A DNA stretch of 41,948 bases from an uncultured Solibacteraceae bacterium (GTDB lineage Bacteria; Acidobacteriota; Vicinamibacteria; Vicinamibacterales; SCN-69-37), in the NCBI GenBank assembly GCA_964548865.1, contig CAZJTG010000004.1:1-41948 (forward strand). Direction: 5' to 3'. Positions 1,735 through 1,822 of this stretch are shown in pieces (the stretch's first letter is position 1; the number at the start of each line of letters is the position of its first letter). The translations under genes were made by a program, and so were the position numbers. The notes below the pieces were generated by a model, which saw nothing but the letters and a program-made list of their open reading frames with translations, made no database searches and had not been told where the DNA came from.

Positions 1735-1822
1735 TTGGAACGACAAACCGGCAAACCATCCGCGAGGGTGGGGCGCAAAGCGAAGGGCCTCGGGCGTCCG
1801 AGGTCGCCTGGCTACCGAAACC
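1735..1822 (+). promoter_or_regulatory. c-di-GMP-I (GEMM-I) riboswitch aptamer in the 5' leader
   Basis: The RNA reads CCGGCAAACC-AUCC-GCGA-GGGUGG-GGCGCAAAGCG-AAGGGCCUCGG-GCGU-CCGAGGUCGCCUGGCUACCG. All conserved GEMM-I blocks are present:
- GCAAACC
- a first hairpin, CCAUCC/GGGUGG, capped by a GNRA tetraloop (GCGA)
- CGCAAAGC
- a second 8-bp hairpin, GGCCUCGG/CCGAGGUC
- a 3' UACCG

The order and spacing parallel the V. cholerae Vc2 aptamer as I recall it. The element starts about 10-15 nt after the predicted transcription start. Confidence 0.75.

Follow-up and report, generated by a model that had tools for sequence, protein, structure and literature searches.

We analysed a 41,948-nucleotide (nt) stretch of bacterial DNA (contig CAZJTG010000004.1, positions 1 to 41,948; hereafter the window), in which a leader with a cyclic di-GMP (c-di-GMP) riboswitch aptamer lies between purA and a three-gene cluster, namely a small open reading frame (ORF1), a gene for a HEAT-repeat protein and a giant ORF of 11,273 amino acids (aa). 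The data support an aptamer of the c-di-GMP-I class that is transcribed from a promoter at 1693–1720, is joined to a terminator-type expression platform and may follow OFF logic. We put the probability of this explanation as a whole at roughly 80%, and its parts are held with different degrees of confidence, as given below.

Identity and conservation of the aptamer

The search with cmscan against Rfam 15 gives a match to RF01051 (c-di-GMP-I) at 1740–1819 on the plus strand, whose 60.0 bits exceed the gathering score of 35 (E = 2e-9, computed over all 41,948 nt and both strands). The match is full length, covering model positions 1–87, and is the sole Rfam match at gathering thresholds across the whole window. 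The original prediction for this stretch had called a c-di-GMP-I (GEMM-I) aptamer and had set the RF01051 gathering score beforehand as its check, and on this score the call stands. In 1600–2000, its negative control, c-di-GMP-II (RF01786), is not matched even with the cut-off relaxed to E ≤ 10, nor is it matched at the gathering threshold in the window. Additionally, all the sequence blocks that it listed are present, including the GCAAACC-type block, the hairpin with the GCGA loop, CGCAAAGC, the 8-bp hairpin and UACCG.

Comparison between genomes indicates that the leader is conserved across one Elusimicrobiota lineage, between purA and the three-gene cluster. In a protein search, the ORF1 family comprises more than 120 clusters, and all members with a named source come from Elusimicrobia/Elusimicrobiota. 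A genome scan for ORF1 homologs, with one genome per species, returned 30 loci, 29 of which are labelled Elusimicrobia/Elusimicrobiota and one only 'bacterium'. An RF01051 match of 51.7–61.3 bits is located directly 5′ of the ORF1 homolog in 29 of these 30 loci; the lone locus without it (L030), where the protein match is weakest, is probably a paralog. Another 16 loci came from a metagenome scan, and the aptamer with the same leader is found in all 14 of those that have upstream DNA. In most loci that extend far enough, the order is purA, riboswitch, ORF1, HEAT protein and the N-terminus of the giant protein, of which the first 900 aa are conserved. Two loci, L010 and L011 on contigs 89 and 27 of the metagenome-assembled genome H52-bin097_1, carry identical copies of purA, leader and ORF1, which may represent a duplication or redundancy of the bin. 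Our searches of a literature library found no paper in which Elusimicrobia or giant genes are connected with c-di-GMP riboswitches.

The covariation alignment (A3) contains 39 distinct leaders and was scored against a structure of 56 pairs, in which P1 and the two hairpins 3′ of the aptamer are added to the Rfam aptamer helices. Across the 39 leaders, 94.8% of the cells are paired, and 21 pairs show double-sided changes, a number that no shuffle out of 500 reached (9.0 ± 1.8); in controls with a slid register, 31–48% are paired. Specifically, the P1a hairpin (helix 4) is 99.6% paired with compensatory changes at two pairs, and its loop is of the GNRA type in every ortholog (GCGA, GUGA, GCAA or GAAA); in this class, such a loop docks into a receptor in P1b. 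The P1b hairpin (helix 5) is 94.6% paired and has three compensatory pairs, for example GGGCC/GGUC changing to GGGUC/GAUC. The covariation in orthologous leaders, which had been proposed as a further check of the call, is thus found, with conservation and covariation in 43 leaders.

To name the ligand-contacting residues, we placed the numbering of the Vc2 aptamer on the Rfam consensus by our own mapping. In Vc2, residue G20 contacts the Hoogsteen edge of one ligand guanine, A47 intercalates between both ligand bases, and C92 forms a Watson–Crick pair with the second ligand guanine (PMC6140456). The equivalents of all three residues are invariant in the 39 leaders, and c-di-GMP is the predicted ligand of the aptamer, favoured over 3′3′-cyclic GMP-AMP (cGAMP) as had been expected. 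The original prediction had placed the G20 equivalent at 1751; the residue is G as stated, whereas its correct coordinate is 1750, and position 1751 is the G21 equivalent, which is paired with C1776. Since 1750 and 1751 are both G, the conclusion about the ligand is unaffected. We regard it as very likely that 1735–1824 is a real c-di-GMP-I riboswitch.

The near-consensus promoter that had been noted upstream is also present. It agrees with the consensus at 11 of 12 positions, sits 15 nt 5′ of the aptamer, and has a mean of 0.0 counterparts in shuffles of the region. The pattern GGTCTTGACA...TGnTATACT is kept at all orthologous loci, and transcription would start at about 1727. Further upstream, a strong purA terminator at 1518–1558, comprised of a 17-bp stem with 14 GC pairs followed by CUUUUGCUAU, divides purA from the riboswitch promoter, and a weaker promoter-like site (TGGACG-16 nt-TATAGT, 1544–1571) overlaps this terminator.

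A candidate expression platform within ORF1

The ATG at 1827 is located 8 nt 3′ of the aptamer, so that the long hairpin and U-tract that follow are encoded within codons 11–33 of ORF1. All 39 main-clade loci, together with L028 and L029, have an in-frame ATG 5–11 nt past the aptamer, even where the surroundings differ. The indels 3′ of this ATG measure 6 nt (L024), 6 nt (L039) and 9 nt (L022/L025), and 1-nt indels occur only 5′ of it. The protein read from this start begins with a signal peptide (…LVGPGLFLALLTVSLRAMA|ETP) whose n-region is long and rich in arginine; the positive charges expected there come only from the N-terminal extension (five Arg in MLISGVTDGFRSASASHRRDRGVRW). A conserved domain of about 100 aa comes next, and the C-terminal part holds a transmembrane segment and ends in a conserved …SSIEVLRC; the invariant motif of the family is AET.VGL.A.GVDP...GLDVRD..GRPV. 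ORF1 matches no Pfam or NCBIfam family, and its sequence suggests a small secreted or membrane-anchored protein.

The same frame also holds TTG 1902 and GTG 1905. The database gene call P0001 starts ORF1 at TTG 1902 and is probably too short at 161 aa. Both starts are less likely than ATG 1827, since the GTG, which is present in 37 of the 39 main-clade leaders, is replaced by GCG in L014 and L046, and the product would have no charged n-region. Across the family, part of the gene calls give 160/161 aa and part 186 aa, and a few extend 5′ through the aptamer, translating it as '...NRQT.RE.GAQSEGPR...'. The original prediction had taken the ATG at 1898 as the first coding sequence (CDS). We rejected this start: its frame is non-coding, with a GC content of 0.51 at third codon positions (GC3) and 0.87 at first codon positions (GC1), its translation is Arg-rich junk, and it lies within the 3′ arm of the covarying inner hairpin.

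Two hairpins follow the aptamer. In the linker hairpin, four of the six pairs carry compensatory changes, for example cAUG..CGUG changing to aAUG..CGUU; the leaders with A before the AUG all carry GGCGUU, and those with C all carry GGCGUG. The long hairpin (helix 7) is paired in 94.6% of the cells, with compensatory double changes at 10 of its 23 pairs. These changes alter the protein in a radical and correlated manner, as in HRRDRGVRW versus HGRDRGVPW, where Arg to Gly is paired with Arg to Pro, and such correlated changes are what selection at the RNA level predicts. The earlier statement that no intrinsic terminator precedes the first CDS is not upheld, since a terminator-like hairpin with a U-tract exists and overlaps the start of the real CDS.

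The U-tract was further assessed by codon usage. A run of at least five U is present in 33 of the 39 leaders. Within the window, TTT is used 6 times compared with 517 times for TTC, and CTA accounts for 3 of 916 Leu codons. At the U-tract/stem site of 34 main-clade orthologs, Phe is encoded by TTT in 29 of 30 cases, Leu by TTG in 31 of 33 and Gly by GGG in 33 of 34, while the background shares in the rest of the same gene in the orthologs are 25%, 11% and 26%, respectively. RNA-level selection acts on the U-tract.

Three divergent loci (L026, L027 and L045) carry the same hairpin, the same loop and a run of six or seven U in a wholly non-coding form. The frame of the hairpin is broken by stop codons in L027 and L045, and the ORF1 homolog of all three starts 20–35 nt past the U-run with its own Shine–Dalgarno (SD) sequence. 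In L026, one extra U brings an ATG in the 3′ arm of the hairpin into the ORF1 frame. The conventional elements of the 5′ untranslated region (UTR) in these three loci sit about 90–130 nt past the 3′ end of the aptamer. L028 and L029 carry a different, perfect 13-bp stem followed by AUUUUUAUU, which is located within the ORF. Additionally, canonical terminators are used in the lineage, as exemplified by the purA terminator. Together, the rare codons, the non-coding versions and the canonical terminators of the lineage argue that the hairpin and U-tract form an RNA terminator-type element and not a by-product of coding. On these sequence grounds, the element is likely to be both the expression platform and a terminator, and the hairpin would have termination activity.

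The loop of the long hairpin (CGGGAYAGAGGGGU, 1881–1894) is a feature in its own right. It is invariant in the main clade and in L026, L027 and L045, is SD-like, and is complementary to the invariant UUUCGCYCG at 1854–1862. Alternative pairing, an internal SD, and contact with a protein or the ribosome are roles that may be proposed for it.

Direction of the switch and rival explanations

Folding models lead us to lean towards an OFF switch, in which c-di-GMP would promote termination. At low c-di-GMP, GGCUACCGAAA (1810–1820) would pair with UUUCGCUCGGCC (1854–1865), ribosomes starting from ATG 1827 could also melt the hairpin, and transcription would continue into ORF1 and on to the HEAT and giant genes. 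With c-di-GMP bound, the 1810–1820 strand and the region just 5′ of the ATG would be locked in the aptamer, the terminator hairpin would form, and transcription would stop near 1922–1926. The position of the ATG next to P1 points to the same direction, since an aptamer locked by its ligand would block access to the initiation region, and with no ribosome present the hairpin inside the gene would then form.

The candidate antiterminator was predicted by RNAalifold on alignments truncated just past the 5′ arm of the terminator, in which GGCU-AC-CGAAA (1810–1820) is paired with UUUCG-CUC-GGCC (1854–1865). This pairing is possible in 96.3% of the cells. In 34 sequences, the antiterminator conformer has a free energy 3.7–4.6 kcal/mol below that of the apo-aptamer fold while the 3′ arm has yet to be transcribed, and 1.4 kcal/mol above it once the 3′ arm is present, a relation that is expected of a ligand-triggered OFF switch. 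When the aptamer is enforced in partition function calculations, the terminator 5′ arm is paired upstream at 0.64 versus 0.80, which is a weak difference with mixed partners. Other antiterminator candidates were rejected. The 3′ arm of P1b (GAGGUCG/CGGCCUC) is broken in L017 and L038, and neither this pairing nor those of AGCGAAG (1779–1785) with UUUCGCU, GGGCG (1771–1775) with CGCYC, and GGCG (1839–1842) with CGCY are consistently predicted or compensated.

Several observations weigh against the OFF switch or against parts of the whole explanation. The columns of the candidate antiterminator hardly vary and hence hold no compensatory changes; with 9 bp and an internal loop it is also short, and it could be displaced by the terminator hairpin, whose stability is far higher (−37.6 kcal/mol). 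High c-di-GMP is usually expected to turn adhesins ON, which favours the opposite direction. The U-tract starts 3 nt past the stem and is interrupted in 2 of the 39 leaders (L016 and L022), and a generic terminator scan did not report the long hairpin, because the loops in that scan were limited to 3–8 nt. ATG 1827 has no SD, though other genes of the window have one, and an SD-like GAGGGG in the hairpin loop, 11 nt 5′ of GTG 1905, makes a second or alternative start possible. Co-transcription of the giant gene with ORF1, for its part, is suggested by synteny, by the 107-nt gap after ORF1, which contains no predicted promoter or plus-strand terminator, and by an overlapping stop and start.

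The same aptamer and terminator could also work with reversed logic as an ON switch, which we consider doubtful. Without ligand, the tail CGAAA (1816–1820) would pair with UUUCG (1854–1858) and block an antiterminator formed by UUUCGCUCG (1854–1862) and the loop segment CGGGACAGAGG (1881–1891), and the terminator would form; with c-di-GMP bound, the tail would be held in the aptamer, the pairing of loop and 5′ arm would form, and transcription would read through to the giant surface-protein operon. RNAalifold does predict the UUUCGCUCG/CGGGACAGAGG pairing when the alignment is truncated at column 166, with 95.4% pair-compatible. The ON model would give a reason for the invariance of the 14-nt loop and the UUUCGC block, which holds also at loci with a non-coding hairpin. 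It also agrees with the common induction of adhesins and matrix by high c-di-GMP, and ON-type GEMM-I switches exist, such as Bc2. However, the UUUCGCUCG/CGGGACAGAGG pairing has no compensatory changes and is a weak helix with two bulged A, three G-U pairs and an alifold energy of −4.0. The pairing of the aptamer strand (GGCU/GGCC and CGAAA/UUUCG) would, moreover, also sequester part of the terminator 5′ arm, which favours an antiterminator over an anti-antiterminator, and the block complementary to the aptamer tail lies inside the terminator 5′ arm in both L028 (CUUCG) and L029 (UUUCG).

Two further explanations concern the output and the ligand. It is unlikely that the long hairpin is a translational or mRNA-level element, in which the loop would provide an SD (GAGGGG, 1888–1893), the stem would hide GTG 1905, the U-run would merely encode Leu-Phe-Leu, and the riboswitch would act purely on translation or mRNA stability. 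The SD-like loop 11 nt 5′ of a GTG that 37 of 39 main-clade leaders carry, the database start at TTG 1902, and the spacing and interruptions of the U-tract all speak for such an element. On the other side, the codons of the U-run are avoided elsewhere (TTT 29/30 at the site versus 25% in orthologs and about 1% in the window), L026, L027 and L045 keep hairpin, loop and U-run in non-coding DNA with a separate SD and ATG downstream, and the GTG is lost in two leaders and would start a protein without a positively charged n-region. Very improbable is the sensing of another ligand, either 3′3′-cGAMP, the ligand of GEMM-Ib, or whatever ligand binds a c-di-GMP-I-GGC-type variant (RF03167), even though RF03167 is displayed at 52.7 bits in a permissive scan with clan competition, RF01051 alone does not separate cGAMP binders, and a class III nucleotidyl cyclase with CHASE2 lies in the same cluster. 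The RF03167 score does not reach the gathering score of 59 set for that family, whereas that of RF01051 is well above its own threshold, and the sequence reads CGCAAAG with A1777 and not CGCGAAG; the aptamer is therefore of the canonical type, with A at the variant-defining position. GEMM-Ib would need A at the G20 equivalent, as carried by the cGAMP-binding variants, and wild-type Vc2 with G20 discriminates strongly against cGAMP (PMC6140456); both G1750 and A1777 are invariant here.

Beyond the OFF switch itself, which remains the favoured direction, we tentatively propose that the platform may have been absorbed into the gene that it regulates. The hairpin and U-tract would then be dual-coded as the n-region and the beginning of the h-region of the ORF1 signal peptide, giving a translation-coupled attenuator whose leader peptide is fused to the regulated protein. 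In such an arrangement, the aptamer would occlude an initiation region without SD, a translating ribosome would melt the intragenic terminator, and c-di-GMP and ribosome initiation would jointly decide the transcription of an operon of more than 36 kb with an 11,273-aa gene. The rare codons and the compensatory changes that alter amino acids would hold the platform in place, and the three relatives with the order aptamer, terminator, SD and ATG would represent an ancestral or alternative state.

Gene context and relation to known riboswitches

Table 1. Positions of the riboswitch leader, its parts and the downstream genes in the window.
Feature	Position	Strand	Remarks
Sigma-70-type promoter	1693–1720	+	−35 TTGACA 1693–1698; 16-nt spacer; extended −10 TG-C-TATACT 1712–1720
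c-di-GMP-I aptamer including P1	1735–1824	+	RF01051-matched core 1740–1819
P1	UUGG 1735–1738 with CCAA 1821–1824; CG 1741–1742 with CG 1816–1817	+	91–94% paired in 39 leaders
Conserved block GGCAAACC	1750–1757	+	
G equivalent to Vc2 G20	1750	+	Rfam model position 11; invariant in 39 leaders
P1a hairpin CCAUCC-GCGA-GGGUGG	1756–1771	+	6 bp; GNRA tetraloop 1762–1765
Conserved block CGCAAAGC	1774–1781	+	
A equivalent to Vc2 A47	1777	+	first A of CGCAAAGC; invariant in 39 leaders
P1b/P2 helix	1779–1813	+	AGC...GCU base and GGGCCUCGG-GCGU-CCGAGGUC hairpin
GC-rich hairpin GGCCUCGG-GCGU-CCGAGGUC	1786–1805	+	8 bp
Candidate antiterminator strand GGCUACCGAAA	1810–1820	+	aptamer 3′ strand; pairs with 1854–1865
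UACCG	1813–1817	+	
CC of UACCG	1815–1816	+	C1815 likely equivalent to Vc2 C92; invariant in 39 leaders
Linker hairpin CAUGCUG/UGGCGUG	1826–1844	+	helix 6; ATG in 5′ arm
ORF1	1827–2387	+	186 aa; ATG 1827 best-supported start; GC3 0.85
Invariant block UUUCGCUCGGCC	1854–1865	+	overlaps base of terminator 5′ arm; candidate antiterminator partner
Long terminator-like hairpin	1858–1916	+	23 bp; folding free energy −37.6 kcal/mol; then CUAUUUUU
Stems of long hairpin	within 1858–1916	+	outer GCUCGGCCUCA/UGGGGCCGGGC; inner CUAGCCAUCGA/UCGAUGGUUGG
Invariant loop CGGGACAGAGGGGU of long hairpin	1881–1894	+	14 nt
U-tract CUAUUUUUG	1917–1925	+	U5 at 1920–1924; rare codons CTA TTT TTG of signal peptide
HEAT-repeat protein	2495–3337	+	280 aa; signal-peptide-like N-terminus; overlaps giant gene start by 8 nt
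Giant ORF	3330–37151	+	11,273 aa; GC3 0.966, truly coding
Second HEAT-repeat gene	37206–38189	+	

The original prediction had put the aptamer in front of the gene string with the giant-protein gene. The synteny is borne out by the orthologous loci, but the aptamer is not directly before the giant gene, as the 186-aa ORF1 and then the HEAT gene intervene. The giant protein has a signal-peptide-like N-terminus, weak Ig-like hits (Big_13 and Big_3) and a C-terminal tail that resembles the FlgD_ig/T9SS C-terminal domain, while most of it matches no known family in Pfam or NCBIfam. Directly past the giant gene and the second HEAT gene, a protein with a CHASE2 sensor and a class III adenylate/guanylate cyclase is encoded at 38186–40258 on the plus strand, and it would be a second cyclic-nucleotide signalling component in a c-di-GMP-controlled cluster. 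Two long antisense ORFs on the minus strand, of 6,398 aa (3171–22367) and 3,296 aa (27315–37205), have a GC1 of about 0.96–0.97 and are therefore mirror images of the GC3 bias of the sense strand and not genes. Likewise, the ORFs at 40352–41938 (+) and 40245–41798 (−) have a GC1 of about 0.95 and no family matches, and neither is a true coding frame.

Among the known systems, Vc2 of Vibrio cholerae, which is located upstream of tfoY/VC1722, shares the blocks GGCAAACC, ACGCAAAGC and UACCG, the same two-hairpin architecture and the GNRA tetraloop on the first hairpin, and its residues G20, A47 and C92 have equivalents here. The present riboswitch differs from it in the host phylum, Elusimicrobiota, in the second hairpin, a short 8-bp GC-rich stem, and in the output, which is a terminator-type hairpin overlapping the CDS, whereas the platform of Vc2 is translational. 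Cd1 of Clostridioides difficile, upstream of flgB, is a c-di-GMP-I, terminator-based OFF switch, in which the ligand prematurely ends the transcript of a very long operon. It thus combines a class-I aptamer with an intrinsic terminator in the same logic as the one that we infer here; the Cd1 terminator, however, lies in a long 5′ UTR, while the putative terminator described here falls inside the regulated ORF, among its first ~33 codons.

Bc2 of Bacillus thuringiensis is an ON switch before a collagen-adhesion protein. Bc1 of the same species is a c-di-GMP-I riboswitch with a long platform and dual terminators, which combines regulation of transcription and translation (PMC11218506). As class-I aptamers, they share with the present riboswitch an unusually elaborate platform that mixes transcriptional and translational elements, and a tie to a large surface or adhesion protein. 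In contrast to Bc1, the present platform has a single hairpin and U-tract in place of two terminators and would be dual-coded with the N-terminus of a protein. The GEMM-Ib riboswitches of Geobacter (e.g. Gs1761) and RF03167 have the same fold and belong to the same Rfam clan, CL00126; the former carry A at the G20 position, where G is found here, and the latter carries G at the A47 position, where A is found here.

The aptamer itself is ordinary and can be found by any Rfam-based annotation. What stands out as unusual in the sequence comparison is the conserved overlap of platform and CDS, together with the presence of both architectures in sister lineages. Supported by covariation and rare codons, the leader offers a natural case for studying how the constraints of RNA structure and protein coding are reconciled, and it corrects the probable start codon for the whole ORF1 protein family. 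For the uncultivated Elusimicrobiota, it provides an example at the level of a phylum in which c-di-GMP signalling is tied to an uncharacterised secreted protein, HEAT proteins, an Ig-like surface protein of ~11,000 aa and a CHASE2 cyclase, and in which the riboswitch would be a regulatory handle on the timing of very costly gene expression.

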